Shown here one piece after another: positions 3,619 to 63,424 of a stretch of DNA of 64,000 bases (positions within the stretch are counted from its first letter, which is position 1; every line of letters starts with the position of its first letter). The notes below the pieces were generated by a model that was not told the DNA's origin, ran no database searches, and saw nothing but the letters and a program-made list of their open reading frames with translations. Made by a program: the position numbers and the translations under genes. This DNA is from Microgenomates group bacterium. Its GTDB lineage: Bacteria > Patescibacteriota > Microgenomatia > UBA12405. The DNA lies in assembly GCA_049303675.1 (NCBI GenBank), contig JBAQNJ010000001.1:536711-600710 (forward strand), in the 5' to 3' direction.

Positions 3619-4365
3619 ATGAAATCTAAATCACTTTATATAATTAAGAAAAAGACATCAGGACGCGATTCACAGGGCCATGTTTCAGTTCGTCATCGTG
3701 GTGGAGAAGAAAAGCGATTTATTCGGGTCATAGATTGGCAACGTTCCAAAATTGACGTCCCCGCCAAAGTCTTGGCCATCGAATACGATCCCAACCGGAC
3801 TGCTCAACTTGCTCTTATTATGTACATCGACGGTACTAGAGGTTATATTCTAGCTACTACCAATCTCAAAGTCGATGATGCGGTCATTGCCTCCGAAAAC
3901 GCTCCTATCAAAGATGGTAATCGCCTTCCACTTCGCAATATCCCTGTTGGAGTTGCCATTCATGGGCTCGAATTTCAGCCGGGCAAAGGAGCTCAGTTGG
4001 TTAAAAGTGCTGGTTCAGCCGCTTACATCCAAAGTATTGATGACAAAAAGGTCACTATTAAATTACCTTCAGGCGAATTAAGATTATTTAACGCCGAAAC
4101 TTGGGCAACCATTGGCCAAGTTAGCAATGCCGATCACTTCAACCAAAAATTAGTCAAAGCCGGAGATTCTCGCCATCGGGGTATCCGTCCTTCTGTTCGT
4201 GGTGTCGCTCAAAATCCTCACTCACATCCACATGGAGGTGGAGAGGGTAAGTCCAGTATTGGTATGAATCCCAAGACGCCTTGGGGCAAGCCAGCTATGG
4301 GCTATCGCACTCGAAAAAAGAAAAAAGCTTCCAACAAGTTAATTGTTCAACGACGTAAAAAGTAA
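3619..4365 (+). CDS. rplB: 50S ribosomal protein L2
   Basis: 248 aa. Conserved L2 C-terminal motifs GRDSQG, HPHGGGEGK and GMNPKTPWGKPA. The N-terminus is shorter than typical. Confidence 0.93.
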   Translation: MKSKSLYIIKKKTSGRDSQGHVSVRHRGGEEKRFIRVIDWQRSKIDVPAKVLAIEYDPNRTAQLALIMYIDGTRGYILATTNLKVDDAVIASENAPIKDGNRLPLRNIPVGVAIHGLEFQPGKGAQLVKSAGSAAYIQSIDDKKVTIKLPSGELRLFNAETWATIGQVSNADHFNQKLVKAGDSRHRGIRPSVRGVAQNPHSHPHGGGEGKSSIGMNPKTPWGKPAMGYRTRKKKKASNKLIVQRRKK

Positions 4366-4404
4366 CTTTTTACTTTTTCACTTTATAACTTTATAAACTA
4401 ACTT
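4366..4404 (+). repeat. CTTTATAA/AACTTTATAA tandem spacer motif upstream of rpsS
   Basis: Spacer ctttttactttttcactttataactttataaactaactt. Same motif family as spacers at 5779, 6683, 9447 and 9966. Confidence 0.6.
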
Positions 4405-4680
4405 ATGTCAAGATCAAGCAAAAAAGGACCATATATCGACGCCAAACTTCTGCTCAAGTCAGCCAAGATATCAGCCTCAGAGGCCATCAAAACTTGGGCC
4501 CGTAAAAGTCAGATTGCTCCCGAATTCATTGGTCACAACTATGCTGTTCACAATGGTAAAAAATTTGTCAACGTCTTTGTCACCGAAGACATGGTCGGTC
4601 ATTATTTTGGCGAATTTTCTCCCACCCGTACATTCAAAGGTCATGGACGTATTGTTAAACGTGTTATTGAAAAAACCTAA
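4405..4680 (+). CDS. rpsS: 30S ribosomal protein S19
   Basis: 91 aa. HNGKKFV and [16 protein letters not shown] motifs. Confidence 0.95.
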
Positions 4681-4683
4681 ACT

Positions 4684-5133
4684 ATGGCTATTACTACTAA
4701 AAAAACTACTACTGTCAAAAAAGCTGTTGTTAGTAAAACAACTGCTCCAAAAATTGTTGAGGCAATTCCCACCCCAGTCAAAACTGGTCTGGCTAAATAT
4801 ATCAACAAAAATCTCAAGGTCTCCCCCCGTAAATTACGTTTAGTGGTCACTGCTATCAAAAATCTTGATCCAGCTACCGCATATACCCGCCTCAAGTTTA
4901 CTAATTCTAACGCCGCCCAATTATTAGCCCGAGCAGTCCAAGATGTGATCGCTTCTGCCAAGAACAATCACCATCTCGATCCCGCCACTCTAAAATTTTC
5001 CGAAATGAGAGTTGATGAAGGCATGAAGATCAAACGCATGGACAAATCACATGGTTCCCGTTTTGCCCGAGGTATTATTCAAAAAAGACATAGTCGATTA
5101 GTTATCGTTTTATCTGGTACAATACAAAGTTAA
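4684..5133 (+). CDS. rplV: 50S ribosomal protein L22 with N-terminal extension
   Basis: 149 aa. L22 core (SPRKLRLVV...AKNN) preceded by a Thr/Lys-rich extension of about 35 aa. Confidence 0.9.
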   Translation: MAITTKKTTTVKKAVVSKTTAPKIVEAIPTPVKTGLAKYINKNLKVSPRKLRLVVTAIKNLDPATAYTRLKFTNSNAAQLLARAVQDVIASAKNNHHLDPATLKFSEMRVDEGMKIKRMDKSHGSRFARGIIQKRHSRLVIVLSGTIQS

Positions 5134-5136
5134 TCT

Positions 5137-5778
5137 ATGGGAAATAAAATTAATCCAATCGGTTTTAGGTTAGAGACTGTCAAAAACAGTCCAGAATGGC
5201 AGTCTTCGTGGTATGCCAATAAAAAGCTCTATCCTCAATTGTTATTAGAAGACAAAAAAATCCGTGATTTTGTCCAGAAAAAATTGTCATCTGCCGGTAT
5301 TGTTTCCATTCGCATCGAACGCTCAGTCAAGAAGCTCAAAATTATCTTAGTTGTTTCTCGTCCAGGATTAGTTATTGGTCGTGGTGGTAAAGAGTTGGAA
5401 ATGCTCAAAAAAGATATCCAGAAAATTATTGCCAAAACTCCAGGCAAACAAAACATTGACATTCAGGTAGAAGAGTTTAAATTAGCCGATCTATCCGCCA
5501 AACTAATTGCCGAAAAGATTGCCTTCCAATTAACCAAGAGAATGCCCTATCGCCGAGTTGTCCTCTCTTCGATCGAAAAATCAATGGCCGCCGGTGCCAA
5601 GGGTGTCAAAATCGTCCTTGGTGGACGTATTAATGGTGCCGAAATTAGTCGACGCGAAAAATTTTCGCAAGGCAAAGTTCCTCTTTCCACTATCCGATCC
5701 AAAATTGATTATGCCGAATGCCCTTCATTAACTCGTTCTGGCTATATCGGAGTTAAAGTTTATTTATGTCTGGTCTAA
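5137..5778 (+). CDS. rpsC: 30S ribosomal protein S3
   Basis: 213 aa. KH-domain motif (GRGGKELE) and the S3 C-terminal domain. Confidence 0.93.
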   Translation: MGNKINPIGFRLETVKNSPEWQSSWYANKKLYPQLLLEDKKIRDFVQKKLSSAGIVSIRIERSVKKLKIILVVSRPGLVIGRGGKELEMLKKDIQKIIAKTPGKQNIDIQVEEFKLADLSAKLIAEKIAFQLTKRMPYRRVVLSSIEKSMAAGAKGVKIVLGGRINGAEISRREKFSQGKVPLSTIRSKIDYAECPSLTRSGYIGVKVYLCLV

Positions 5779-5833
5779 TTTTATAACTTTAACTTTACAA
5801 ACTTTTAACTTTATAAACTTTATAAACTAAATT
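5779..5833 (+). repeat. AACTTTA(T/C)AA tandem spacer array upstream of rplP
   Basis: ttttataactttaactttacaaacttttaactttataaactttataaactaaatt holds about 5 degenerate units. Confidence 0.6.
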
Positions 5834-6238
5834 ATGTTACAACCATCCCGTACCAAATATCGTAAACAATTCCGTGGCCGCATGAGAGGGCTCTCTCAAG
5901 GTCACTTAGTTGAGTTTGGTGATTTTGGTCTCAAGGCTCTCGAGTGTGGCTGGCTCACTGCCAATCAAATCGAAGCCGCCCGCAAAGCTATTTCTCACGC
6001 CACCAAACGTAACGGCCGGATGTGGCTTCGCGTCTTTCCCGACAAACCCTTTACCGAAAAGGGTGCTGGTGCACCACTTGGTGCAGGCAAGGGTGATGTC
6101 AAGGGTTATGTCTGTGTAGTTCGTCCTGGACGAATTATGTTTGAAATTTCCGGTGTCACCGATGCCGAAGCTAAAATTGCCCTCAATCTCGCTTCTGCCA
6201 AGTTACCTGTTACTACCAAGGTTGTCAAAAGAATCTAA
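5834..6238 (+). CDS. rplP: 50S ribosomal protein L16
   Basis: 134 aa. Translation MLQPSRTKYRKQFRGR... is a classic L16 N-terminus. Confidence 0.95.
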   Translation: MLQPSRTKYRKQFRGRMRGLSQGHLVEFGDFGLKALECGWLTANQIEAARKAISHATKRNGRMWLRVFPDKPFTEKGAGAPLGAGKGDVKGYVCVVRPGRIMFEISGVTDAEAKIALNLASAKLPVTTKVVKRI

Positions 6239-6253
6239 TTTAACCTAGTAATT

Positions 6254-6454
6254 ATGAAAAAAACTGATAAAATGTCCTACAGGCAAAAATCTCTACCAGA
6301 GCTTCAAAAACTCATGGCCGATCTGCAGAAGAAACTAGTGGAAACTAGACTCAAGCATCTTACTGGAAATCAGAAAGACACCTCACAGATTCGTAAAGTT
6401 AAATATGAGATTGCCTACGTCTTAACATTAATTACCGAAAATGGAAACAAATAA
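6254..6454 (+). CDS. rpmC: 50S ribosomal protein L29
   Basis: 66 aa helical protein in the L29 position. Confidence 0.85.
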   Translation: MKKTDKMSYRQKSLPELQKLMADLQKKLVETRLKHLTGNQKDTSQIRKVKYEIAYVLTLITENGNK

Positions 6455-6707
6455 AGGAAAAACATTTACTGGTGTTGTCGTCTCCGACAAAATGACCAAT
6501 ACTATCGTTATTGAGCTGAGCTATACCTCACGTCATCCGATGTACAAAAAAATCGTCAAAAAACATAAGAAAATTTATTCAGAAAACAACTTATCCGCCA
6601 AAACTGGCGACACTGTCTTAGTCCGCGAAACTCGTCCCCTTAGCAAGCTCAAAAGATTCACTACTGTAGAAATTATTAAAAAAAATCAAGAACTTTCAAC
6701 TTTATAA
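6441..6707 (+). CDS. rpsQ: 30S ribosomal protein S17
   Basis: 88 aa. Translation GVVVSDKMTNTIVIE... matches S17. The last 6 codons are encoded by the AACTTTATAA repeat. Confidence 0.9.
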   Translation: METNKGKTFTGVVVSDKMTNTIVIELSYTSRHPMYKKIVKKHKKIYSENNLSAKTGDTVLVRETRPLSKLKRFTTVEIIKKNQELSTL

Positions 6708-6732
6708 CTTTTAACTTTATAAACTAATTTCT
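6683..6732 (+). repeat. AACTTTATAA spacer array overlapping the rpsQ 3' end and preceding rplN
   Basis: Sequence gaactttcaactttataacttttaactttataaactaatttct. Confidence 0.55.
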
Positions 6733-7101
6733 ATGTTACAACTACGCTCAATCATCAAACCAGCCGACAACTGCGGAGCCCGTCGTGTCATGGTCATGCA
6801 CATCTACAAGGGTAGCGTTCATCGTAGTGCTACTGTTGGTGATATTGTTTTAGCCGTCGTCAAAGATGCCATTCCCAATGGCATGGTCAAGAAAAAAGAA
6901 AAAGTCAAAATGGTTATTGTTCGAACACGCAAAGAAATTCAACGTGCCGATGGTTCCCTTATCCGTTTCTCTGACAATGCCGCCGTCGTTATCGATGCTC
7001 AAAATAATCCCCGTGGTACTCGTATCTTTGGGCCGATTGCTCGTGAAATCAAAGACTTAGGTTTTAATAAAATTGCTTCAATGGCTCAGGAGGTCTACTA
7101 A
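6733..7101 (+). CDS. rplN: 50S ribosomal protein L14
   Basis: 122 aa. MLQLRSIIKPADNCGAR matches the MIQxxTxLxVADNSGA core of L14. Confidence 0.95.
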   Translation: MLQLRSIIKPADNCGARRVMVMHIYKGSVHRSATVGDIVLAVVKDAIPNGMVKKKEKVKMVIVRTRKEIQRADGSLIRFSDNAAVVIDAQNNPRGTRIFGPIAREIKDLGFNKIASMAQEVY

Positions 7102-7102
7102 T

Positions 7103-7426
7103 ATGAAAATTCAAAAAGGTGATACCGTCAAAGTATTAATCGGCAAGGATAAAGGTCGTGAGGGAGTTGTCGTTTCTGCTTTCCCCAAAAAGGACTCCCT
7201 AGTCGTCAAAGGCCTCAATATCTACAAAAAACACGTTAAGCCCTCTCAAGGACAGAAGGGTGGTATAGTCGAAAAAGAACGCGCTCTCCACTCTTCAAAA
7301 TTAATGTTGATTTGTCCTTCCTGTAAAAAAGCCACCCGTGTCAGTTATCAAATTGACAAGACTGGTTCCAAGTATCGTATTTGTCAAAAATGTAAGGCTA
7401 TACTAACCAATAAATTAACCAAATAA
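7103..7426 (+). CDS. rplX: 50S ribosomal protein L24 with C-terminal C4 zinc-ribbon extension
   Basis: ATG at 7103 inside ORF 7073..7426. KOW motif (KGDTVKVLIGKDKGREG) plus CPSCKK...CQKCK at the C-terminus. Confidence 0.85.
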   Translation: MKIQKGDTVKVLIGKDKGREGVVVSAFPKKDSLVVKGLNIYKKHVKPSQGQKGGIVEKERALHSSKLMLICPSCKKATRVSYQIDKTGSKYRICQKCKAILTNKLTK

Positions 7427-7427
7427 T

Positions 7428-7970
7428 ATGACCACCTCAACTTCATCTCTCACCACTTCCTTACTTAAAACTCTCCAAACTCAGTTTCCCCAGAGGAACA
7501 TCCATTCATTCCCTTCCCTTACCAAGGTAGTTCTCAATTACCGTGTCAGCGACGGTCGTGATAGTCAAGAGCAATTAGCTGCTGCCGAGACAGAACTAGT
7601 CGCTATCGCTGGTCAAAAACCCAAGCTTTGTAAATCCAAAAAATCTATCGCTACTTTCAAATTACGTGAAGGTGAGCCCTTAGCCTACAAAGTTACCCTT
7701 CGTGGTCTGCGTATGCACCAATTTGTCGAGAAACTTTTCAACATTGTTTTGCCTCGTCTTCGTGATTTCAAAGGTATGCCTCTTTCCGCCTTTGATCAGG
7801 AGGGGAACTATAATCTAACTATCAAGGATCAGACCTATTTTCCTGAAATCAATTTAGATAAAGTCAACAAAATTAGACCTATTCAAATTACTCTGTGTAT
7901 ATCTTCCTCTTCAAAAGAAGATTCAAAAATGTTATTATCCGCCTTAGGTTTTCCATTTGAGAAACAATAA
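7428..7970 (+). CDS. rplE: 50S ribosomal protein L5
   Basis: 180 aa in the L5 position with an L5-like core. Confidence 0.92.
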
Positions 7971-7972
7971 AT

Positions 7973-8158
7973 ATGGCTACTACTGCAAAAATAGTTCGAG
8001 AAACTAAAAAACTAAAATATTCGGTCCGTCACCACAATCGGTGTAGTTTGTGTGGCCGTCCTCACGCATTTATTCGTTTATTTGGCATTTGCCGTCTTTG
8101 TTTTCGCAAACTCGCCAATGCCGGTATGTTGCCCGGAGTTAAAAAGGCTAGCTGGTAA
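7973..8158 (+). CDS. rpsN: 30S ribosomal protein S14, zinc-binding type Z
   Basis: 61 aa with CSLCGRP...CRLCFR, a CxxC-x12-CxxC arrangement. Confidence 0.9.
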
Positions 8159-8166
8159 AAATTACT

Positions 8167-8553
8167 ATGATTACTTCACTTTCCAACGATTTTTTAATTA
8201 GACTCAAAAATGGTTCCCGTGCTGATCGTAAAACAATTACGGCCCCTCTTTCCAAGTACTGTGTCGCTATTGCTCAATTGATCAAAAAGTATGGTTATAT
8301 TGCTGATTATTCTATCTCCGACTCTGACAAGCTGATAACTATCAGTTTTGCCTATCATGATGGTGTTCCAGCTATCTCCGATGTTCAATTATTTTCTCGT
8401 CCGGGACGTCGACTTTATGAAAAGGCTTTTTCCCTTCCCTGGGGTAAATCAAAAGACTCACTTATTATTATTTCCACATCCTCCGGTGTCATGTCTCAAA
8501 AAGAGGCCAAGAAAAGGGGATTGGGCGGCGAAGTTATCGCTGAAATTTGGTAA
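8167..8553 (+). CDS. rpsH: 30S ribosomal protein S8
   Basis: 128 aa in the S8 position with an S8-like C-terminus (GGEVIAEIW). Confidence 0.92.
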   Translation: MITSLSNDFLIRLKNGSRADRKTITAPLSKYCVAIAQLIKKYGYIADYSISDSDKLITISFAYHDGVPAISDVQLFSRPGRRLYEKAFSLPWGKSKDSLIIISTSSGVMSQKEAKKRGLGGEVIAEIW

Positions 8554-8559
8554 ACCACT

Positions 8560-9099
8560 ATGTCACGAATTGGAAATCTTCCCATTACTATTCCTGCAGG
8601 AGTCACTCTAGCCCAAGAAGGGTCACTCATTACTGTCACTGGACCCAAGGGTTCGTTGACCCTCTCTCTGCCACTCAAAATCAAAGTAGTCGTTACCGAT
8701 AATCAAGTTGTCATTTCTCGTTTAGGCGAGGACAAGAAAACCAAGGCTAATCATGGCACTATCCGTGCCCGAATTGCCAATATGATAAACGGTGTAGTCA
8801 CACTTTGGACCAAAGATATGGAAATCCGTGGCACTGGTTACAAATTCCAAGTCGCCGGCAACAAGCTCACTGTCCATGCTGGTTACATCAATCCTGTCGT
8901 AGTCACAGCCCTAGATGGGATATTTTTTGCCTCTGCCGACGAATCAAAACTAACCATTTCTGGTATCGACAAAGTAGTTGTTGGACAAACTGCCTCAAAT
9001 ATTCGTAAAATAAGAACACCCGAGCCTTACAAAGGTAAAGGAATTAGATATCTTAACGAATTTATCAAGCTCAAAGCCGGCAAGACCGCTAAAGCCTAA
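8560..9099 (+). CDS. rplF: 50S ribosomal protein L6
   Basis: 179 aa. MSRIGNLPITIP is the L6 N-terminus. Confidence 0.93.
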   Translation: MSRIGNLPITIPAGVTLAQEGSLITVTGPKGSLTLSLPLKIKVVVTDNQVVISRLGEDKKTKANHGTIRARIANMINGVVTLWTKDMEIRGTGYKFQVAGNKLTVHAGYINPVVVTALDGIFFASADESKLTISGIDKVVVGQTASNIRKIRTPEPYKGKGIRYLNEFIKLKAGKTAKA

Positions 9100-9104
9100 A
9101 ACAT

Positions 9105-9446
9105 ATGATCACTAAAAATAGAACTCAAAAAAGACAAAATCGTGTCCGTGCCAAAATTGCCAAAAACATTGGTATTCCTCGATTAACCGTCCTTCGTACT
9201 AACTCTCATATGTGGGTTCAGGTAATTGACGACAAACATGGTAAAACTTTAGCCAGTAGTTCCAGCAAAACCATCAAAGCTACTGGTTCCAAAACCGAAG
9301 TCGCCATTCAGGTTGGGACCGATATTGCCAAAAAATCATTAGCCAAGAAAATTCTCAATATTCGTTTTGATCGTGGTGGCTACAAATATCATGGCCGAGT
9401 CAAAGCTCTGGCCGATGCTGCCCGCGATGGAGGACTCAAGTTCTAA
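9105..9446 (+). CDS. rplR: 50S ribosomal protein L18
   Basis: 113 aa. RLTVLRTNSHMWVQVIDD and FDRGGYKYHGRVKALADAARDGGL match L18. Confidence 0.9.
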   Translation: MITKNRTQKRQNRVRAKIAKNIGIPRLTVLRTNSHMWVQVIDDKHGKTLASSSSKTIKATGSKTEVAIQVGTDIAKKSLAKKILNIRFDRGGYKYHGRVKALADAARDGGLKF

Positions 9447-9485
9447 CTTTATAACTTTATGAACTTTTAACTTTATAACTAACTT
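9447..9485 (+). repeat. AACTTTATAA spacer array upstream of rpsE
   Basis: Sequence ctttataactttatgaacttttaactttataactaactt. Confidence 0.6.
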
Positions 9486-9965
9486 ATGAACTCATCATTT
9501 GAAAACAAACAAATTCGCCATATGGATCGTCCTGAGTCTGAATTTACCGACAAAGTAGTCGAGATCAAACGTGTCAGCAAGAAGACCAAGGGTGGTAATC
9601 AAATTTCTTTTACCGCTCTGGTTGTTACTGGTGATAAAAAATCTCGTGTCGGGGTAGGTCATGCCCGAGCCAAGAGTGTCGCCGATGCAATTGCCAAGGC
9701 TATCCAAAAAGGCCGCAAATCCATTATGACTATCAATATTATCAACGGTACCATTGCTGATTCGATTAAATTAAAATTCAAGGGTGCCATAATTCTAATC
9801 CGTCCAGGCAAGCAGGGTAGCGGCTTAATCGCCGGAGGTCCAGTTCGCTCTGTTGTTGAATTAGCTGGTATTAAGGATATTGTTAGCAAAGTCATTGGTT
9901 CCAAGACCAAATCAGTTAATGTTTGGGCTACCTTCAAAGCTCTAGAACAATTCAAAAAAAACTAA
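9486..9965 (+). CDS. rpsE: 30S ribosomal protein S5
   Basis: 159 aa. dsRBD-like N-terminal domain plus the S5 C-terminal domain (GSGLIAGGPVRSV). Confidence 0.93.
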   Translation: MNSSFENKQIRHMDRPESEFTDKVVEIKRVSKKTKGGNQISFTALVVTGDKKSRVGVGHARAKSVADAIAKAIQKGRKSIMTINIINGTIADSIKLKFKGAIILIRPGKQGSGLIAGGPVRSVVELAGIKDIVSKVIGSKTKSVNVWATFKALEQFKKN

Positions 9966-10007
9966 TCTTTACAAACTTTATAAACTTTTAACTTTACAAA
10001 CTCTATT
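9966..10007 (+). repeat. AACTTTA(C/T)AA spacer array between rpsE and rplO, where rpmD is usually located
   Basis: Sequence ctaatctttacaaactttataaacttttaactttacaaactctatt. No L30 ORF is present here. Confidence 0.6.
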
Positions 10008-10427
10008 ATGAATATTCAATCAAGTTTACCCAAAACCACTACTAAACAGCAAAAAAGAGTCGGTCGTGGCTATGGTTCCGGTGTCGGTGGCCACACCACT
10101 GGTCGCGGCTCCAAGGGTGACAAAGTTCGCGGCACCACCAAAATTACTTTTGATGGTACCAAAATCAAAAAAGGCTGGATCAAACGGACACCTTTTTTGC
10201 GCGGCAAACATCGCACTCTCAAACTCGGCACCTATGCAGTTTTCAACTTATCCCGAATTGATGCTATGTTCAAGGCAGGGGAAACCGTTGATACCAAAGC
10301 CCTCAAATTTATGTCTGTCAAAATTTTGGGTAGTGGCACGCTGACCAAAGCCCTCAACTTCAAAGGATTGGTTTATTCCGAATCAGCCAAGAAGGCCATA
10401 TTAGCAGCCGGTGGTAAGATAGATTAA
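10008..10427 (+). CDS. rplO: 50S ribosomal protein L15
   Basis: 139 aa. Gly-rich N-terminus (GRGYGSGVGGHTTGRGSKG) typical of L15. Confidence 0.9.
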   Translation: MNIQSSLPKTTTKQQKRVGRGYGSGVGGHTTGRGSKGDKVRGTTKITFDGTKIKKGWIKRTPFLRGKHRTLKLGTYAVFNLSRIDAMFKAGETVDTKALKFMSVKILGSGTLTKALNFKGLVYSESAKKAILAAGGKID

Positions 10428-19873: not shown

Positions 19874-19898
19874 AAGTCGGGAATACTGGATTCGAACC
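19874..19898. repeat. 25-bp direct repeat duplicating the tRNA-Pro 3' end (attR-like)
   Basis: aagtcgggaatactggattcgaacc is identical to 20178-20202. It covers the T-loop and acceptor 3' strand but there is no 5' tRNA half here. Confidence 0.8.
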
Positions 19899-20177
19899 TC
19901 AGCCACAGGCTGATCCGCCTTTGGCGGAAGCAACTTCTTTCAGTATTATATCTCTAATTTTTCTACCAAAACCACTTTTGTAAAAGATCTCTCTATTGGT
20001 AGCATCATCCTTACAAATATATTTTTCAAAATATACTAATTCAAAAGGTATATTCTCTGCAGTAAATTTATTCATACCTCTATTATGTTTATTTAGCCTT
20101 ATCTCTGGCAGTTGTGATGTTTTACCAGTATATATTTTTCCATTTCGCAAACTTCTCAAGAAGTATACAAAATACAT
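19899..20177 (-). CDS. GIY-YIG nuclease family protein
   Basis: 92 aa from the ATG at 20177, immediately 3' of tRNA-Pro. MYFVYFLRSLRNGKIYTGKT...R...HNRG matches the GIY-YIG motif layout. The TGA stop lies inside the duplicated tRNA fragment. Confidence 0.75.
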   Translation of the reverse strand: MYFVYFLRSLRNGKIYTGKTSQLPEIRLNKHNRGMNKFTAENIPFELVYFEKYICKDDATNREIFYKSGFGRKIRDIILKEVASAKGGSACG

Positions 20178-20180
20178 AAG

Positions 20181-20254
20181 TCGGGAATACTGGATTCGAA
20201 CCAGCAACCTCGCGCACCCCATGCGCGCGCGCTAGCCAATTGCGCCAATCCCCG
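20181..20254 (-). tRNA. tRNA-Pro (anticodon GGG)
   Basis: Hand-folded cloverleaf: acceptor CGGGGAT/ATTCCCG, D-stem GCGC/GCGC, anticodon stem CGCGC/GCGCG with loop AUGGGGU, T-arm GCTGG-TTCGAAT-CCAGT, discriminator A. CCA is not encoded. Confidence 0.85.
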
Positions 20255-20371: not shown

Positions 20372-20423
20372 TTAATTCAAATTCAATTCGTAATTAGTAA
20401 TTCGTAATTTGTAATTAATTAAT
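20372..20423 (+). repeat. degenerate heptamer array (aattcgt/aattagt/aattcgt/aatttgt/aattaat) directly upstream of recA
   Basis: It is near-identical (31/33) to the array at 29108-29142 upstream of miaA. The same heptamer is tandemly repeated inside cca at 37919-37950. Confidence 0.6.
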
Positions 20424-29100: not shown

Positions 29101-29107
29101 ACCAACC

Positions 29108-29142
29108 AATTCGTAATTAGCAATTCGTAATTTGAAATTGAA
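29108..29142 (+). repeat. degenerate heptamer array (aattcgt aattagc aattcgt aatttga aattgaa) at the miaA start
   Basis: Near-identical to the recA-upstream array. It overlaps the TTG start of miaA. Confidence 0.6.
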
Positions 29143-30043
29143 TAAACTACTAATCCTCTCCGGCCCCACAGCCACAGGGAAAACAGCGCTGGCCATTGAA
29201 ATAGCCCAAAAGTTCGCTGGCGAGTTAATTTCTGCCGATTCTCGTCAAATATATCGAGGTATGGATATTGGCACAGGCAAGGATCACCCCCCGAATATCA
29301 AAATTAATTTAATAGATATTATCAATCCCGATCAAAGTTTTTCTGTAGCGCAATTTAGGCAACTCGCTATTGAAAATATCAACGAAATTCATAGTCAAAA
29401 TAAACTTCCAATTATTGTCGGTGGCACTGGTCAATATATCGATGCCCTCGTCAATCCCCGCCCCACTTTTGCCATCCCTCCCCACAACTTTTTACGCTTT
29501 TTTCTGAATCACCTTCCGCTAAAATTTCTTCAACATACTTTAAAAACTTTGGACTTTAAAACTTTCAACTCACTTAACAATTCCGATCTCCACAACCCCC
29601 ACCGTCTTATAAGAAAAATAGAAATAAGATTATCAAAAAAAAAGATTGCAGATTGTAGTTTGAAGATTGAAGATTATGATATTCTCCATCTTTCTCTCAC
29701 TGCCCCAAACCAATTTCTTTACTCTCGTGTCGACACCCGTGTCCAGTCCCGTCTCGATGCTGGACTATTAGCCGAAATCAAAATGTTATTAAAAAAATAT
29801 AAATGGACTGACCCTGGATTAAACACTCTTGCCTATATGGATTTTAGACCATATTTTGTAGAGACGCCATATATGGCGTCTCTACTCTCTCGTTGTATTG
29901 AATCATGGCGTTTTGCCGAACATGCTTATGTTCGTCGCCAAAAAACATGGTTTAAGAAAATTAATCCGCTTTTTATCGATATCTCCACCGCAGGGTATAA
30001 AAAAAATCTCATGACCAAAATTAATAAATGGTACAATCAGTAA
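29132..30043 (+). CDS. miaA: tRNA dimethylallyltransferase
   Basis: TTG start. The sequence carries LILSGPTATGKT and SADSRQIYRGMDIGT as MiaA motifs. Confidence 0.88.
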   Translation: MKLNKLLILSGPTATGKTALAIEIAQKFAGELISADSRQIYRGMDIGTGKDHPPNIKINLIDIINPDQSFSVAQFRQLAIENINEIHSQNKLPIIVGGTGQYIDALVNPRPTFAIPPHNFLRFFLNHLPLKFLQHTLKTLDFKTFNSLNNSDLHNPHRLIRKIEIRLSKKKIADCSLKIEDYDILHLSLTAPNQFLYSRVDTRVQSRLDAGLLAEIKMLLKKYKWTDPGLNTLAYMDFRPYFVETPYMASLLSRCIESWRFAEHAYVRRQKTWFKKINPLFIDISTAGYKKNLMTKINKWYNQ

Positions 30044-31032
30044 TGAAAGCCCAGCGAATTGAAATATCCACCAAGACAATTGTATTTACCGTTTCCTTTT
30101 TACTCGGGCTTTGGCTGCTGTGGTTTTTGCGCGATATTATTTTACTCATGTTTATTTGTGTGATTTTTATGGAGGTCCTCAATCCTGCTATCAGCACTCT
30201 CCAGAATTTTAAAATCCCTAGGTTTCTCAGCATTATCTTTATCTACACCGTGGTCATTAGCTTTATTAGTTTTATGCTAGCTTGGGTCATTCCTATATTA
30301 GTTAGCGAGACATCTGGACTACTTCGAGTTTTACCAGACTCTCTCCAAAACATAAACATCATGGGGTTTTCCGCCATCGATTTGTCATCTCAATTTAAAA
30401 TTCTTGAGTCAATTCCTGCCAATGTCGCTTGGACAGTAATTTCCTTTTTTTCCAATTTATTTACTGGCTTTCTCATCCTAGTTATCACCTTTTATCTACT
30501 AATTGAGAGAGAAAAATTAGACGACTACACCGCCATGTTTTTTGATTCAAAGGGGCAGGATATAGTCAAAAGTGTTTTCAATAAAGTCGAGAAGAGGCTT
30601 GGTCGCTGGGTCAACGGCGAGCTTATTTTGATGTCCGTGATTGGTATCTTGTCATACTTGGGATATGTTTCAGTTGGTCTAAACTATGCCCTTCCTTTAG
30701 CTATTATAGCTGGATTACTAGAAGTAGTTCCTACTGCTGGACCAATTGCCGCGACAATTCTGGCTGCCCTTGTTGGACTGACCACCTCCCCCTTAACTGC
30801 TTTATTTGCAGTTTTCTGGGGAATTATTGTTCAGCAATTAGAAAACAATTTTATAGTCCCCAAAATCATGAATGCTGCCGTCGGTCTCCACCCCATTATT
30901 ACCATTCTCGTCATTACCATCGGTGCCAAGTTTGCCGGTGTTGGTGGCGCCCTACTTGCCGTGCCTGTTTATATTACTTTTGAGACTATCGTCCGCTCCA
31001 TTTTGGAGTGGAAAAAAAGTGCTTCCAAGTAG
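30028..31032 (+). CDS. AI-2E family transporter (UPF0118/PerM-like)
   Basis: 334 aa, about 8 TM helices, overall AI-2E topology. Confidence 0.75.
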   Translation: MVQSVMKAQRIEISTKTIVFTVSFLLGLWLLWFLRDIILLMFICVIFMEVLNPAISTLQNFKIPRFLSIIFIYTVVISFISFMLAWVIPILVSETSGLLRVLPDSLQNINIMGFSAIDLSSQFKILESIPANVAWTVISFFSNLFTGFLILVITFYLLIEREKLDDYTAMFFDSKGQDIVKSVFNKVEKRLGRWVNGELILMSVIGILSYLGYVSVGLNYALPLAIIAGLLEVVPTAGPIAATILAALVGLTTSPLTALFAVFWGIIVQQLENNFIVPKIMNAAVGLHPIITILVITIGAKFAGVGGALLAVPVYITFETIVRSILEWKKSASK

Positions 31033-31311
31033 CCGATAAGCCGAATTCTGTTTAGGAACCATTTATCTATTCTCTTTACCTGAGACTCTCGAAAGAGAGA
31101 TATTAACGTCTCGACTCAAGATTTCCACCAAAGGGTTGCTCGTTTCATTTCAGGCGCCGGAGCTTCTTGCGAAGGCGACCCCATCTCGTCTCTGTAGCAG
31201 CGCCCCTAGCTTGCGCCAGTGTCTACTTTTTCGACCTTTGTTCTTTCTGTGGTTCGGACTTTCCTGCCGCGATTTTTAAAATCGGGCTTGATTCCTCAAC
31301 TACTTGGAAGC
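31021..31311 (-). ncRNA. rnpB: RNase P RNA (reduced bacterial type)
   Basis: Minus strand carries P4 5' strand AGGAAAGTCCGAAC and P4 3' strand ACAGAATTCGGCTTA with compensatory GAA/TTC changes. A 12-bp P1 (GCTTCCAAGTAG/CTACTTGGAAGC) closes the ends. P3-like hairpin CGATTTTAAAAATCG. Confidence 0.65.
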
Positions 31312-36980: not shown

Positions 36981-38317
36981 GCCATATCTCTAATCTTCTG
37001 AAGTAGCACTTCTCTCACATTCAAACTCACATCTTTTTCTACTTCTTCAAACAGAGCATCCAGCACTTCACCCACTTTTCGGCTCGGTTTAATATTTAGA
37101 GTTTCCATTACATCCAGCCCATCTACTTTTAGATCTTTGACCGAAAAAGGTTGTTTTTGCACTTCGACAAATCGTTTTTTGAGTAGTTCCCAGCGCCAGC
37201 TCGTTTCCTTAGCCCCGCTGCCTATCCTATCAGCCCGCCGCAGGTCAATCATCTCCTCTAGGTATTCTGGTGTCACATTGCGAATTAGGCGTCGTACCGC
37301 GCTATCAGTTTGTAGTTCCGTAGCCGTAAACATATGCCATCGCACCAGTCTAAATAATTTATCTAATTCTTTATTAGACAGTCTTAATCTTTTACCAATT
37401 TTATTGGCAATTCTACTGCCAATAATGTCGTGATTATGAAAAGTATTAATGCCATTTATTGTTTTCATCACTACCGGCTTGCCTATATCGTGAATCAGTG
37501 TCGCCAATCTAGTGATTGGATCATTAGTTTGGCAATTTCGCAGTGCCTCGAGGCTGTGGGTGAAGACATCGTATATATGGTGACCTCGCTGTTTCATTCC
37601 TTCCCCCACCAAAATTTCTGGCATAATTTCCGCCAACAATCCGGCATTTTTCAGCATCTTAATTCCATCTACAGCCTGATCACTCGCCAATATTTTAAAC
37701 AATTCATCTCGCACCCGCTCCGCTGCAATCTTATTAATTAATGGGGCATTATTTTGGATGGCTCCAAACGTTTTTTCTTCTATTATAAATTCAATTTGGC
37801 AGGCGATACGGATCGCCCGCATCATTCGCAGGGCATCTTCCTTAAATCTCTCCTCTGGATTTCCCACCGCCCGAATAATTTTATTTTTAAGATCATTTTG
37901 CCCATCATATGGGTCAATAATTCGTAATTCGTAATTCGTAATTCGTAATTCCAACGCGATAGCGTTGACCGTAAAATCTCTCCTCTCTAAATCCTCTTCA
38001 ATTGTCTTTCCCCACTCCACCTTGTCCGGATGTCGATTATCACTATATTCCCGCTCCGTGCGATAAGTGGTTATTTCAAAAATCTCCCCGTCTGGATTAA
38101 CTATACTAAATGTCCCATAGTCATTCTCGCAAAAACTATTTTTCGGGAAAATCTTTTTCATTTCCTCGGGAGTGAGGTTGGTGGCAAAATCCCAATCTTT
38201 TACCTCTCGTCCTAGCATCAAATCTCTTACCGCCCCTCCCACCACAAAAATCTCAGATTTATTATCTGAGAATTTTTTCATAACCTTAGTTACTTTCTCT
38301 GGCAATTTCATTTCCAT
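36977..38317 (-). CDS. cca: CCA-adding tRNA nucleotidyltransferase with HD domain
   Basis: 446 aa. Pol-beta NTase head (VVGGAVRDLMLG...DWDFAT) plus HD domain (LIHDIGKP). Confidence 0.85.
   Translation of the reverse strand: MEMKLPEKVTKVMKKFSDNKSEIFVVGGAVRDLMLGREVKDWDFATNLTPEEMKKIFPKNSFCENDYGTFSIVNPDGEIFEITTYRTEREYSDNRHPDKVEWGKTIEEDLERRDFTVNAIALELRITNYELRIIDPYDGQNDLKNKIIRAVGNPEERFKEDALRMMRAIRIACQIEFIIEEKTFGAIQNNAPLINKIAAERVRDELFKILASDQAVDGIKMLKNAGLLAEIMPEILVGEGMKQRGHHIYDVFTHSLEALRNCQTNDPITRLATLIHDIGKPVVMKTINGINTFHNHDIIGSRIANKIGKRLRLSNKELDKLFRLVRWHMFTATELQTDSAVRRLIRNVTPEYLEEMIDLRRADRIGSGAKETSWRWELLKKRFVEVQKQPFSVKDLKVDGLDVMETLNIKPSRKVGEVLDALFEEVEKDVSLNVREVLLQKIRDMA
37919..37950. repeat. heptanucleotide tandem repeat (aattcgt) x4.5 inside the cca CDS
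   Basis: aattcgtaattcgtaattcgtaattcgtaatt encodes the peptide repeat ELRITNYELRI. The same heptamer arrays occur upstream of recA and miaA. Confidence 0.8.
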
Positions 38318-38932: not shown

Positions 38933-39208
38933 ATGGCAGGTAAAAAAGGACCCAGAGTTGAAAGTTCACAAATTAGAGCAGTTGGTGCAACTATTGGTAA
39001 AAATGGTCAAGTTGAAAGTATTTCTACCGTGATTCGCTCCACTTCCCTTGAAGCCGAGAACGCTACCCTAGACCTTTTACACCAAATGGGTATTACCTCT
39101 AGACCAATAGAACGCAGTAAAAATAATGGTAAATCATTTGCCCCAGGCCAAAACATGAGTCAAGCGGATTGGGACAAGATTTTCAAAAAAGGTCAATCAC
39201 AAAATTAG
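38933..39208 (+). CDS. hypothetical protein
   Basis: 91-aa ORF followed by a strong terminator. Confidence 0.4.
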   Translation: MAGKKGPRVESSQIRAVGATIGKNGQVESISTVIRSTSLEAENATLDLLHQMGITSRPIERSKNNGKSFAPGQNMSQADWDKIFKKGQSQN

Positions 39209-39227
39209 AACTATATTTCCTACCAAA

Positions 39228-39258
39228 AACCCCTCCGAAAGCTTTCGGAGGGGTTTTT
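39228..39258. terminator. bidirectional rho-independent terminator
   Basis: AAAACCCCTCCGAAAGCTTTCGGAGGGGTTTTT is a perfect GC hairpin with flanking A and T tracts between convergent genes. Confidence 0.7.
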
Positions 39259-39276
39259 ATTTTAATGTAATTAAAA

Positions 39277-39640: not shown

Positions 39641-41242
39641 GTGGACAAGAAAATAAATTTATTATCACCAATTGTAATTAGTAGCCAAACACTATCCCAG
39701 TTAGTGCCAACTCTAGTTCACAATCGTTCCATAACCGATTTCGATGAATTTATCAATCCACCCTATCCCAAATTAAAACTAACTCTAAAACCAGCCATCA
39801 ATCTAATAAATAAAATTATAAAATCACGTAAAAATATCCTTATTTACGGGGATTACGATGTCGACGGCATTACTGCCACTGCCGTACTTTGGCAGGCAAT
39901 TTACAAAAATTATCCGAACGTCACCCCCTTTGTTCCCCATCGTCAACGTGATGGTTATGGTATCAAGGCCGCCTCATTTTTTCGTTTCCAGCAGGAGAAA
40001 AACATTCAATTTGATCTGTTAATTACTGTCGACAACGGTATCGTGGCCGACAAAGAATTGGCCAAAATCAAGTCCAAACAGCCGATAAAAATAATTGTTA
40101 CCGATCATCATCTAGGTAACGTCAAATTAGAATCTGCCGATTGCATTGTCCACAATGTCTTAATATCAGGTGCTGGAGTATCTTGGTTTCTAGCCAAAGA
40201 ATTGGATCCCAGTGCTGATTTGGGGTTGGCTGCCCTAGGTAGTGTGGCTGACTGTCTACCACTCACTGGTGTCAATCGTTCTCTGGTCGTTCATGGTCTA
40301 GCCCAAATAAATTCCACGCCCTCCCTTGGTCTCCAGAAGCTAATTCAAATTTCTGGTATCCACCATCCAGTTTCTGTCTATGAATTGGGTTTTCTTATCG
40401 GTCCACGGATAAATGCAATTGGCCGGCTCTCCGATCCCACCGATGCCTTGCGACTTTTATGTAGTCAAAACAACCTTCAAGCCTCACGTTATGCCAAGTC
40501 GCTCAATGATTTTAATCAAGACCGCCAAGTCATCCAAAAAGATTCACTTGAGCAGGTTGAATTATCAATAAGTAAGGGCGAGTCTCGTGCTCGCCCCAAC
40601 CAAAAAATCATCTTTGTCTCTGGTCCATATAATGCCGGAATCATTGGTCTAATTGCCGGTCGACTCACCGGAAAATATTATTTGCCTTCAATTGTGATTA
40701 GTGTCGATGGCGATATCGCCAAGGGCTCCTGTCGCTCTATTCCCGAACTAAATATTATTGAATCTCTCCGCCATCATTCTGATTTGTTTATTGATTTAGG
40801 GGGCCACTCCGGTGCGGCAGGCTTTAGTATTTTAACCAAAAACATCAATAAACTAGAGAAATCCATACTGAAAACTGTTAACTCCAAACTCAACAAATTG
40901 AATTTAATGCCCCATCTTGACGTTGATTTACAAATGGATTTATCTGTAGTCAATACCAAAACCATCAAATCAATTCAGCAGTTGGCTCCTTTTGGTATTG
41001 GCAACCCCGAGCCATTATTTTTATTCAAAGATCTAAATATTCAAAATATCCGAACCATCGGCCAAACTAATGATCACCTCAAACTAAAATTAAATAATAT
41101 CGATGCCATTGCCTTTAAAAAAGGGGAGTTAGTCCACAAATTAAAAGTTGGCGATAGCCTCGACGTTATCGCCAGTTTGTCAATCAACGAATGGAACAAT
41201 GTTAGCTCCCCTCAGTTGATAATTAAAGAAATTATCATATAA
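39641..41242 (+). CDS. recJ: single-stranded-DNA-specific exonuclease RecJ
   Basis: 533 aa, GTG start. The sequence carries DHH family motifs (IYGDYDVDGITA, VTDHH) and a DHHA1 region (GGHSGAAG). Confidence 0.88.
   Translation: MDKKINLLSPIVISSQTLSQLVPTLVHNRSITDFDEFINPPYPKLKLTLKPAINLINKIIKSRKNILIYGDYDVDGITATAVLWQAIYKNYPNVTPFVPHRQRDGYGIKAASFFRFQQEKNIQFDLLITVDNGIVADKELAKIKSKQPIKIIVTDHHLGNVKLESADCIVHNVLISGAGVSWFLAKELDPSADLGLAALGSVADCLPLTGVNRSLVVHGLAQINSTPSLGLQKLIQISGIHHPVSVYELGFLIGPRINAIGRLSDPTDALRLLCSQNNLQASRYAKSLNDFNQDRQVIQKDSLEQVELSISKGESRARPNQKIIFVSGPYNAGIIGLIAGRLTGKYYLPSIVISVDGDIAKGSCRSIPELNIIESLRHHSDLFIDLGGHSGAAGFSILTKNINKLEKSILKTVNSKLNKLNLMPHLDVDLQMDLSVVNTKTIKSIQQLAPFGIGNPEPLFLFKDLNIQNIRTIGQTNDHLKLKLNNIDAIAFKKGELVHKLKVGDSLDVIASLSINEWNNVSSPQLIIKEIII
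41210..41235. repeat. 26-bp direct repeat (copy 1, recJ 3' end)
   Basis: cctcagttgataattaaagaaattat is 23/26 identical to 41598-41623. Confidence 0.65.
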
Positions 41243-41243
41243 T

Positions 41244-41576
41244 ATGAACTATATGACAAAGAGATACGATGTAGTTGCCATTGGACATCTACACCAACAA
41301 ATTGTTCCACATGATTTTAATATTATCGCTGGAATGAGATACCCCGACGTCGGTATTGAAGTTAGTGATATTGGTTTAATTAGGCTAGATAAGAGAATCA
41401 GAGTTGCCAGTGTCAAGAGACTTGAAAATGATGGGCACTTCGAAGTACGACGTGGTAAATTAGGAAAAATTACTCTTCCTCCCCCTCGCACCTACGAGGG
41501 ACGAATCGAATTTCTTAGTCCAGATGAGTCCGTTGTCTCAATTACTTTTCCAAGAAAAACTGTCAAAGAAGTCTAA
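41244..41576 (+). CDS. hypothetical protein within a direct-repeat-flanked cassette
   Basis: 110 aa with no recognised domain. Flanked by 26-bp direct repeats that copy the recJ 3' end. Confidence 0.45.
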   Translation: MNYMTKRYDVVAIGHLHQQIVPHDFNIIAGMRYPDVGIEVSDIGLIRLDKRIRVASVKRLENDGHFEVRRGKLGKITLPPPRTYEGRIEFLSPDESVVSITFPRKTVKEV

Positions 41577-41597
41577 TGGAAATCAAACTCCATTATT

Positions 41598-41623
41598 CCT
41601 CAGCTTATAATTAAAGAAATAAT
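41598..41623. repeat. 26-bp direct repeat (copy 2)
   Basis: cctcagcttataattaaagaaataat is a non-coding copy of the recJ terminal codons. Confidence 0.65.
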
Positions 41624-41643
41624 ATTTTAAATAAATTTGGCAC

Positions 41644-41699
41644 CCTCCTTGTCAAGGGAGGGGGATGTCACGACTAATGTCGTGACAAGGGGCTGGGTT
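41644..41699 (+). repeat. structured hairpin repeat element, copy a
   Basis: ccctccttgtcaagggaggg, then the TGTCACGAC-TAAT-GTCGTGACA hairpin, then aggggctgggtt. Same architecture as copies at 44372, 45485, 48028, 53591 and 63388. Confidence 0.75.
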
Positions 41700-41716
41700 A
41701 AATATATAATTCCTCT

Positions 41717-43468
41717 ATGAATCGTAGCAAAACTATCGAGTGTTTGGTCCTTGTCGGTCAAACCGTCAAATTGCAGGGTTGGGTGGCCAATATTCGTGAT
41801 CATGGTCAATTAGCTTTTATTGATTTACGTGATTGGTTTGGCACAGTTCAAATCGTCACCAATAGGGAGATTGACTTTGGTAAAGAATGGGTCATCGAGG
41901 TCGAGGGTCTGGTCAAAAATCGTGATCCAAAATCAGTCAACACCAAAATACCCACAGGTTCAATCGAAATAGAGGCGACTCGGATCACTATCTTGAACAA
42001 ATCTGAGGTCTCTCCCTTTCCACTCGACACCGATGGCACCGAACAGGACGAAAACTTGCGTCTCAAATACCGTTATCTTGACTTGCGACGGACTCGACTA
42101 GCCAATATTATTCAAAAAAAACACAAATATATTTTAGCTGTCCGTAATTGGATGGACAACGCCGGTTTTACCGAAATTATCACCCCTCTTCTGACCACTA
42201 GTTCTCCTGAGGGTGCCCGTGATTTTCTGATTCCCTCGCGGATTCATCAAGGTAAATTTTTTGTTCTCCCTCAGGCTCCCCAGCAATTCAAACAATTACT
42301 CATGGTTGGCGGTATTGATCGATATTTTCAAATTGCTCCTTGTGCCCGTGATGAGGATCCTCGGGCTGATCGCCATGCTGGAGTCTTTTATCAAATCGAT
42401 ATCGAAATCAGTTTTCCCACTATTGATATTATTTTTTCCACTGCCGAGAATCTGCTCCGTGACACTATTTCCACCATTGCCCCCCAAAAGAAAATTACCA
42501 CTTTCCCTTTCCCTCGGATTTCTCACACCGATGCCCTGAATCGCTATGGCTCCGACAAGCCAGATATTCGTTTTGGCCTCGAGCTTCAGGATGTCACCTC
42601 CATATTAAAAAATAAAACCGAATTTAATGTCTTTAACAATGCAGAAATTATAAAAACAATAGTAGTAACCGGTGGTGGTGAATTTTCCAAAGCCCAAATC
42701 AATACTTTGGAGTTTGCCGCCAAAGAAAAGGGAGCCAAGGGGCTAGCCTATACCAAGGTTACCCAGAATGGTTTTGATACTGGTATTTCCAAATTCATTG
42801 AATCAACAAAAAATGATTTAATCAATTCTACAAAAGCACAAGAAGGGGACCTCTTAATTTTTGTCGCCGATAATTCAAAGACAGTCAACAAATCACTTGG
42901 TCATGTCCGCAATCTCTTGGGCACAATGCTAAATTTAATTGACCCAAATCTCCTCTCATTTGCTTGGATCACTGGTTTTCCTTTTTACGAAATCAATGAT
43001 GAGGGTATATTGGATTTTGGTCACAACCCTTTTTCTATGCCAGTCGGTGGCATCGATGCTCTTAACTGTAACGATCCCTTATCTATCGAGTCCCATCAAT
43101 ATGATTTGACTCTCAATGGTTTCGAGTTGGCCTCTGGCAGTATTCGCAATCACGAACCTGAGACTTTAGTCAAAGCCTTCGAAATAGTCGGTTATGGCCG
43201 CGACGAAGTCATTCGTAAATTTGGTGGCCTCTACAACGCTTTTCACTATGGCGCCCCACCCCACGGTGGCTGGGCTATTGGTTTGGATCGGCTCTTAATG
43301 CTCTTGCTTGATGAGCCCAATATTCGCGATATCTACGCTTTTCCTCTCAATTCCAATGGCATCGATGTCCTGATGGGCGCCCCGAGCGTTGTCGACGAGC
43401 GGCAACTATCCGATGTTGGTATCAAATTAATCCATGAAGACAAAATTAAAAAACCTGCCCAAAAATAA
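41717..43468 (+). CDS. aspS: aspartate--tRNA ligase
   Basis: 583 aa. Anticodon-binding OB fold, class II motifs ([20 protein letters not shown]) and a GAD insertion. Confidence 0.95.
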
Positions 43469-63387: not shown

Positions 63388-63424
63388 CCCCTCCTTGTCA
63401 AGGGAGGGGTCAGGGGTGGGTTTT
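63388..63424 (+). repeat. structured hairpin repeat element, copy e
   Basis: cccctccttgtcaagggagggg plus tcaggggtgggtttt. The core is near-identical to copy a. Confidence 0.75.

Follow-up and report, generated by a model that had tools for sequence, protein, structure and literature searches.

A duplicated recJ 3' end and a small-gene cassette at the recJ-aspS junction of a Shapirobacteria-like genome

Analysis of a 64-kb stretch of DNA from a Microgenomates group bacterium (64,000 nucleotides of contig JBAQNJ010000001.1; hereafter the window) revealed that the 3' end of recJ, the gene of a single-stranded DNA exonuclease, recurs downstream of a small open reading frame (ORF110) located between recJ and aspS, the aspartyl-tRNA synthetase gene. 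On balance, the evidence favors the view that the second copy of the repeat is a former working recJ 3' end, which was displaced when a cassette made of a small gene and a replacement recJ 3' end (the first copy) entered the recJ-aspS junction. The insertion was probably achieved by ordinary homology-driven recombination. A previous reading of the sequence alone had described the duplication as the footprint of an att-like or homing-type event. The footprint of insertion or displacement at the recJ 3' end holds beyond chance, as indicated by shuffled sequences, empty sites in relatives and relics at other loci. The implied autonomous element is not supported, given that the 388-bp unit encodes only a protein of 107-110 amino acids without a nuclease or recombinase signature.

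The recJ tail and its second copy

The 26-mer CCTCAGTTGATAATTAAAGAAATTAT, at positions 41210-41235 of the window, recurs with three mismatches at 41598-41623, as reported in the sequence-only reading (23/26), although it does not represent the last 26 bp of recJ, which ends at position 41242. The full repeat comprises 33 nucleotides (nt), at 41210-41242 (copy 1) and 41598-41630 (copy 2), both on the plus strand, with 27 of 33 positions identical and a spacing of 388; both copies run through a TAA stop codon. Copy 1 is the working recJ 3' end and encodes PQLIIKEIII before the stop, while copy 2, the presumed displaced relic, encodes PQLIIKEIIF and lies in the frame of ORF110, beginning 21 nt past the stop codon of that gene and not 22 bp, as had been stated. 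The longest exact run between the copies is 14 nt (ATAATTAAAGAAAT), which is kept between species because it encodes I-I-K-E-I. No further match to the 26-mer was found on either strand of the 64-kb window (expected number 0.00 in 100 dinucleotide-preserving shuffles), and when the downstream 1.5 kb was shuffled 200 times, the 27/33 identity was never attained. AT-rich composition, which the sequence-only reading had named as a possible source of the similarity, did not reproduce the observed level in either set (0/100 and 0/200). An upstream extension of the repeat to a Trp codon (shared AATGGAA) was rejected, with a local p of 0.35 and an anchored p of 0.6 against shuffles. On the downstream side, the similarity stops exactly at the stop codon, and no sequence resembling the start of ORF110 follows copy 2.

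Read in the ORF110 frame past its stop codon, the sequence gives WKSNSIIPQLIIKEIIF followed by a stop. About 120 Shapirobacteria RecJ proteins share a conserved C-terminus, PQL[IV][IV]KEI plus two to three residues and a stop, and several of them end exactly in KEIIF. The six differences between copy 1 and copy 2 in 33 nt fall, respectively, at codon positions 1, 3, 3, 3, 1, and 3, and they result in a single, conservative residue change (Ile to Phe) with the stop kept. The probability of at most one amino acid change with a retained stop, given six random substitutions, is 0.0016. In addition, the working tail of one relative (protein P0045, locus L097) encodes a peptide identical to that of copy 2, with DNA differing at eight third positions only. 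The near-synonymous differences and the peptide identity with L097 thus indicate that coding selection acted on the copies while they diverged, and that their joining is recent compared to this divergence. Copy 2 therefore reads as a recJ 3' end that was shaped by coding selection and lost its role recently, and as neither a decayed in-place duplicate nor a chance match.

When species are compared, their tails agree at 18-22 of the first 24 nt, while the remainder of recJ is 64-76% identical. Over the codons of PQLIIKEI, copy 1 and copy 2 agree at 21 of 24 positions, which is no higher than the level seen between tails of different species, and thus the repeat provides no evidence for a freshly made target-site duplication. 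Two tails of different lineages would look like the pair observed here.

Comparison of about 15-20 related recJ-aspS loci (numbered with the prefix L) revealed relatives without any cassette, as the sequence-only reading had proposed to look for. The slot is empty in L092-L094, L013, L014, L017, L021, and L038. At empty sites, aspS starts 10 nt past the recJ stop in L092-L094, 6-11 nt in L017, L021, L038, and L020, and 30 nt in L013 and L014; the RecJ proteins of L092-L094 are 68% identical to that of the window. Cassettes bounded by relics of the recJ tail occur in five or more further lineages; such relics were seen in L010, L011, L012, L006/L007 (two relics), L098, and L099. Their length varies by locus from about 15 to 33 nt, and the identity with the tail was 26/33 in L012 and 22/33 in L011 (each attained in 0/200 shuffles), and 20/33 in L010 when compared to its own tail. 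The L010 relic (AAAGAAATCGTAACAGTGTAAAATTCCTTCAT, directly followed by the ATG of aspS) is nearly identical to the working tail at the empty site L092 (AAAGAAATCATAACAGTGTAAAATTCCTTCT, again followed by ATG), the spacer before the aspS ATG included, and for this reason the aspS-proximal copy appears to be the ancestral one. L099 contains the same relic as L010, with a 20-nt internal deletion and a different cargo, so that the relic should be older than the present cassette. Between L006 and L098, the family A gene (see below) is an indel of about 340 bp with tail and relic at its bounds. In the RecJ tree the outgroups have empty sites, the L012 relic is independent, and the empty L092 is nested among filled loci, which fits a loss of the cassette via recombination between the repeats.

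Cargo of the recJ-aspS slot

The first ATG of ORF110 (41244-41576, plus strand, 110 amino acids) is separated from the recJ stop codon by one base, and not by the 2 bp given previously; the likely start is the second ATG, at 41253, which gives the 107 amino acids of the GenBank annotation. The absence of a recognizable domain was borne out by searches of Pfam, NCBIfam, PHROGs, PADLOC, and PDB sequences, none of which gave a significant match. In particular, no HNH, GIY-YIG, LAGLIDADG, His-Cys, or PD-(D/E)xK nuclease was detected (best E-value 0.2 in Pfam and 0.023 in PHROGs; NCBIfam, PADLOC, and a PDB profile search were also used). Three other identities were rejected: a metallophosphoesterase fragment, for which the PHROGs E-value of 0.023 was the sole support; a diverged duplicate of either the RecJ OB domain or the AspRS N-terminus, for which BLASTP returned the 9-residue tail only; and a cadherin/Ig-like protein, since the phmmer E-value of 1e-17 to giant proteins was the sum of dozens of weak repeats, the best single one scoring 11 bits. 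The latter matches are a mere hint of a beta-rich fold. An AlphaFold2 model built from a 3-sequence alignment had a predicted local distance difference test (pLDDT) score of 48, which is unreliable and too poor for a fold search, and ORF110 is predicted with low confidence to be a small all-beta protein.

The cargo is not unique. Two homologues exist, both in the recJ-aspS slot of other Shapirobacteria (ORF110 to P0011, BLASTP E-value 6.6e-13; P0132 to P0011, 1.8e-6), and these three are the only members of this family (family A) in 5.8 billion clustered proteins. A phmmer search over 1.8 billion representatives detected just one of the three. A phage origin of the family was rejected, as it is absent from IMG/VR contigs. 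ORF110 is a real small protein of conserved length and is treated here as a passenger that would be expressed from the predicted promoter in the recJ tail.

Across about 15 related genomes, the slot, which is enclosed by two essential genes, holds nothing, a candidate small RNA, or up to three small genes, which belong to at least seven unrelated families. Its content is A110 (ORF110) and a relic in the window; A108, relic, orf96, relic, B97, and the candidate small RNA in L006/L007; C74 (minus strand), A100, and A101 in L096, where the first of the two tandem small ORFs alone is a detected family A member; B91 in L009; x97, relic, B98, and the candidate small RNA in L098; D108 and a relic in L010; D114, relic, and D111 in L011; F136 in L008; G74, C78 (minus strand), and the candidate small RNA in L095; C77 (minus strand) in L002; and the candidate small RNA alone in L003. 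L012 contains a 70-amino-acid helix-turn-helix (HTH) protein and a relic, and L099 an HAD hydrolase (minus strand) and a relic. Family A thus shows presence/absence polymorphism at this site, being found in the window, L006/L007, and L096 and missing from the empty relatives. BLAST detected homology within families (L009_91 to L007_97, E-value 2e-9; L011_114 to L011_111, 1.6e-8). The possibility that all slot ORFs form one fast-evolving family was rejected, because the hhalign probability between A and B was 0.3% and most pairs gave no BLAST signal. Pfam and PADLOC returned no match for the slot cassette proteins except the HTH protein, and no toxin or immunity signature was found among the cassettes.

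A conserved non-coding element of about 150-200 nt was located in the slot of four relatives (L003, 5560-5760; L098, 4700-4890; L095, 4590-4785; L007, 1105-1196) and is missing from the window. The element combines a -10-like box of its own with a terminator-like hairpin and a T run behind it, and it matches no family in Rfam. L098 and L095 have nearly identical versions of it, with different ORFs alongside. It is a candidate for a new small RNA.

Promoter-like sites and the displacement reading

Copy 1 contains a sigma-70-type promoter-like site, TTGATA-N16-TATAAT (41216-41243, plus strand, 11/12 consensus), in which the -35 hexamer lies in the Leu-Ile codons of QLII and the -10 hexamer overlaps the recJ stop. 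The segment agrees with sigma-70 hexamers and spacing (16-18 nt), and with the placement seen at other genes, and it is the predicted promoter of ORF110. This putative double role of the duplicated segment, as coding end and as promoter of the next gene, had been missed in the sequence-only reading. When the top-scoring promoter-like site upstream of the first gene past recJ was considered, 11 of 16 loci reached at least 9/12, with the geometry of the tail in 9 of the 11, compared to 3% of control ATGs. In L017, L021, L038, and L020, a TAAAAT box overlaps the recJ stop just upstream of aspS. In the window as a whole, a TATAAT-like hexamer ends 5-7 nt before the ATG in 13 of 37 long ORFs and at none of the control positions, which suggests that near-leaderless transcription is usual in this genome.

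Copy 2 did not reach the threshold of the promoter scan. The aspS gene is preceded by another promoter-like site, GTGACA-N17-TATAAT (41682-41710, plus strand, 11/12 consensus), which ends 6 nt before the aspS ATG. Two plus-strand hairpins are located between the relic and aspS: hairpin 1, CCCTCC-TTGTCAA-GGGAGGG, at 41643-41662, and hairpin 2, GTCACGAC-TAAT-GTCGTGAC, at 41667-41686, whose 3' arm gives the -35 hexamer of the aspS site. The hairpin pair was inserted downstream of the relic and makes up part of the current aspS site. Folding of 41570-41720 gave a z-score of -4.6, and the relic/hairpin region has no Rfam match. Hairpin 1 (CCCTCCTTGTCAAGGGAGGG) occurs twice in the window, the second copy at 63389-63408 being exact, and behind each copy come a G-rich box (AGGGGYTGGGTT), a -10-like box, and the start of a gene; the hairpin and its boxes may be a regulatory or mobile promoter module.

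The favored reading can be put as a series of steps. The last 30 nt of recJ would have two jobs, encoding the final strand of the RecJ OB domain (PQLIIKEI and the residues after it) and acting as a sigma-70-type promoter, from which the next gene would be expressed as an mRNA with almost no leader; in the compact layout taken as ancestral, that gene would be the essential aspS. Because of this double role, we propose that any insertion at this point must duplicate the segment, so that one tail would keep recJ whole and drive ORF110, while the other would remain as a relic. The incoming DNA, taken up from another Shapirobacterium, would have brought with it a recJ tail, the cassette, and the relic. 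Genes for DNA uptake are common in bacteria of the Candidate Phyla Radiation (CPR). On the left side, recombination would have taken place at the long homologous anchor offered by recJ, and on the right side the junction would lie in the short, highly conserved tail, formed by homologous or homology-facilitated illegitimate recombination (HFIR); a dedicated recombinase would be unneeded. Recombination between the direct repeats could in turn delete the cassette and restore an intact recJ, and the slot is therefore proposed to be a hotspot of gain, loss, and swapping. The promoter activity of the tail, the direction of transfer, and the recombination pathway are all parts of this account that we infer.

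Some observations weigh against displacement by an incoming recJ end. Since no relative closer than 70% RecJ identity was found, the empty site of the window's own lineage, the left junction, and the donor are not identifiable; no mosaic signal marking the left junction is visible in recJ, the relatives being too distant. With about 20-33 nt, mismatches included, the right-hand homology is short for recombination of the RecA type. Copy 2 lies in the ORF110 frame, and read-through translation could be an alternative source of its coding constraint. Selection for promoter retention fails to explain the persistence of copy 2 in the window, because copy 2 is not promoter-like and the aspS promoter-like site lies 60 nt further on. 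The left ends of relics cluster at Pro/Gln codons in most lineages, which could mean a defined recombination site, although such clustering is also expected from selection keeping the -35 box. Only about 20 loci stand behind the survey.

The rival explanations carry unequal weight. Chance similarity in an AT-rich region (36-39% G+C) or an assembly artefact has a negligible probability, as no shuffle reached the observed match, copy 2 translates to a RecJ C-terminus known in other species, the same architecture occurs in independent assemblies of other samples, and the ORF110 protein was read on two contigs. Site-specific insertion is a more serious contender. The conserved tail, with a core around ATAATTAAAGAAAT, would serve as an att-like site for a recombinase encoded elsewhere (for example, Xer-like), or ORF110 would be the remnant of a larger element with its integrase deleted. 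The attL/attR-like architecture, in which a gene 3' end is targeted and restored, the 14-nt exact core common to both copies, the clustering of relic left ends at Pro/Gln codons in several lineages, and, in the same window, a small cassette flanked by an exact duplication of 25 nt from a tRNA-Pro 3' end all speak for it. We nevertheless consider it unlikely. No recombinase is encoded in the cassette, and no recombinase family was recorded among the genes within 6 kb on either side; relic lengths differ (about 15 to 33 nt); and the cargo amounts to 0.2-0.6 kb without a trace of element genes. The repeat also lacks conserved binding-site symmetry and a conserved hairpin, copy 2 folding no better than shuffles on either strand (z-scores of +1.25 and +0.49). 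An attC-like or palindromic recombination site was rejected in this connection, as an 8-bp palindrome or stem is present in copy 1 alone and not in copy 2 or in the tails of relatives.

A purely local origin, by tandem duplication of recJ tail and small ORF, with the second ORF then lost and its tail left behind without horizontal transfer, would agree with the two full-length paralogous ORFs of L011 (E-value 1.6e-8), each preceded by a tail or relic, with the two tandem small ORFs of L096 (the first alone a detected family A member), and with the base composition of ORF110, which is like that of its neighbors. Its probability is nonetheless small: a neutral relic diverged at 6 of 33 nt should not keep a perfect RecJ peptide and stop (p = 0.0016), a similarity ending at the stop codon would require a second deletion with a coincidental boundary, and the L010 relic is closer to the working tail of another species than to the L010 tail itself. 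Homing, in which ORF110 or a nuclease acting in trans would cut cassette-free recJ tails, with repair spreading the cassette and the synonymous differences of copy 1 giving protection, is very improbable, even though there is presence/absence polymorphism at one site with homologous cargo in three genomes, the copies differ mainly at synonymous positions, and a GIY-YIG gene occupies the analogous cassette after tRNA-Pro in the window. ORF110 has no nuclease match in Pfam, PHROGs, NCBIfam, PADLOC, or PDB, the slot cassettes fall into seven or more unrelated families, an HTH protein and an HAD hydrolase among them, and homing itself does not leave a displaced target copy.

Displacement by an incoming recJ end can be extended to a broader, tentative proposal, which we regard as possible though doubtful: an integrase-free cassette exchange site in Shapirobacteria, where the last 30 nt of recJ would be at once coding end, promoter of the next gene, and portable homology arm. 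Orphan genes would then move as "tail half, gene, tail half" at the recJ-aspS junction and build promoter-equipped arrays like those of L006/L007 and L011.

Genomic surroundings and comparison with known systems

The recJ gene (39641-41242, plus strand) is intact and encodes 533 amino acids. Its product scored 413.6 bits against TIGR00644, above the cut-off of 396.9 for RecJ exonuclease, covering profile positions 2-546 of 546, and contains the Pfam domains DHH, DHHA1, and RecJ_OB, the last one spanning profile positions 1-106 of 107 and reaching residue 529. It is closest to Candidatus Shapirobacteria proteins, with a top identity of 70% (574 RecJ homologues gave an E-value below 1e-100), and the window can be assigned on protein similarity to a Shapirobacteria-like CPR genome. 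The sequence of the window also matches contig JBAQFH010000001.1 (998 kb) of assembly GCA_049287145.1, likewise recorded as a Microgenomates group bacterium. The right-hand border of the slot is the conserved aspS (41717-43468, plus strand; Pfam tRNA-synt_2 E-value 9.8e-99, GAD, and anticodon OB domains). The local order is an RRM protein gene (minus strand), recJ, ORF110, aspS, and a peptidase S11 gene, and the wider set of genes around the slot comprises SecDF, the CCA-adding enzyme, the RRM protein, recJ, aspS, peptidase S11, and gltX. This order is kept in relatives apart from the content of the recJ-aspS interval, and aspS is syntenic in all related loci. The G+C content around the locus is 36-39%, and the base composition of ORF110 does not differ from that of its neighbors. 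A metagenome scan with the single RecJ protein as query gave no matches, and with an alignment as query it gave mostly distant loci. The literature on Shapirobacteria recJ and on CPR leaderless promoters yielded nothing specific.

Other features of the window were recorded as well. An exact second copy of the last 23 nt of tRNA-Pro(GGG) (20180-20254, minus strand), together with 2 further nt (GGTTCGAATCCAGTATTCCCGACTT), lies at 19874-19898. Between the tRNA-Pro copies (19874-20254, minus strand) lies a 92-amino-acid ORF with a GIY-YIG domain (Pfam E-value 2.6e-13), which abuts the tRNA and the second copy; this unit resembles a genuine nuclease cassette with a duplicated gene end at its flanks. 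For the RNase P RNA (31028-31304, minus strand), the Rfam match kept was the archaeal RF00373 (107 bits), with no bacterial-model match listed, an odd result in a bacterial genome. Intergenic AT-rich repeats of two kinds recur several times, one with the sequence CAATTCGTAATTAGTAATTCGTAATT and the other formed by arrays of AACTTTATAAACT-like units (20384-20422, 29107-29145, and 37918-37956; also 4365-10019). At 39164-39260, a terminator-like hairpin between a 91-amino-acid ORF and the RRM gene gave a sub-threshold Rfam match to the Listeria small RNA rli38 (43.9 bits, gathering score 49) and is probably only a bidirectional terminator.

CPR bacteria (Patescibacteria) have very small, compact genomes, and their ways of gaining accessory genes are poorly understood; the recJ-aspS locus provides a concrete example. 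Where a gene end is also the promoter of the next gene, new genes could enter only with that segment duplicated, and the copies would then become handles for gain, loss, and swapping. The slot suggests that a pool of small, fast-evolving orphan proteins exists at one fixed chromosomal address, in seven or more families that standard searches mostly fail to detect. These proteins are a possible strain-level marker across metagenomes and candidates for roles in host, phage, or episymbiont interaction. The locus also carries a warning for annotation, in that short gene-end duplications need not mean integrases or homing enzymes.

Integrative elements that target the 3' ends of genes (tRNA, tmRNA, and protein genes) bring a surrogate 3' end in attP. 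The recJ slot resembles them in the direct repeats of a gene end that flank the insert, in the intact target gene, and in the displaced copy at the far junction. Flanking 3'-end repeats and a restored target are thus present, but no integrase was found: no tyrosine or serine recombinase was recorded for ORF110 or for the genes up to 6 kb away on either side. The insert amounts to a single gene (about 0.33 kb), the repeats share 82% identity and an exact core of 14 nt, and several unrelated cargos occur. Integron arrays likewise consist of small, mostly orphan genes beside a fixed point with a short repeat between them, and the comparison of L006 with L098 suggests a similar newest-first displacement. 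In contrast to integrons, no IntI is located nearby and no attC-type hairpin is present, the repeat is the coding end of a housekeeping gene, and the cassettes have their own predicted promoter, whereas integron cassettes are promoterless. Free-standing homing endonuclease genes, such as T4 seg and mob (PMC2330249), are also small genes between conserved genes, with presence/absence in relatives and synonymous flanking differences, but the cargo here lacks a nuclease motif and many unrelated cargos share the same site.

Further parallels are offered by recombination without an element-encoded enzyme. HFIR in naturally transformable bacteria (PMC3240628; de Vries and Wackernagel, 2002, and Prudhomme et al., 2002, as cited in PMC5361080) combines a long homologous anchor on one side, here recJ, with a micro-homology junction on the other. 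A right junction that recurs at the same short sequence is unusual for HFIR, which is a putative route at this locus. In the 3'-end displacement arrays of rhs, orphan modules of contact-dependent inhibition (CDI), and effector-immunity genes of type VI secretion systems (T6SS) (Kirchberger et al., 2017, PMC5361080; Jackson et al., 2009, as cited therein), a new 3' end arrives with a small downstream gene, the resident end is left as an orphan, and repetition of the process leads to arrays. The proposed route is also alike, with an upstream homologous anchor and an illegitimate or short-homology downstream junction (PMC5361080). The recJ slot shows the same arrangement of a conserved gene followed by orphan 3' ends interleaved with small genes, with one relic in the window, two in L006/L007, and one each in L010, L011, L012, L098, and L099. 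It differs in that the recJ tail is not a polymorphic toxin domain but is among the most conserved parts of the gene, toxin-immunity logic is missing, the relic comprises 11 codons only, and the duplicated piece is also a predicted promoter. The feature is best filed as a 3'-end displacement at a hotspot of horizontal transfer, whose peculiarity is that a piece with a putative dual role, as coding end and promoter, is displaced in a CPR genome.

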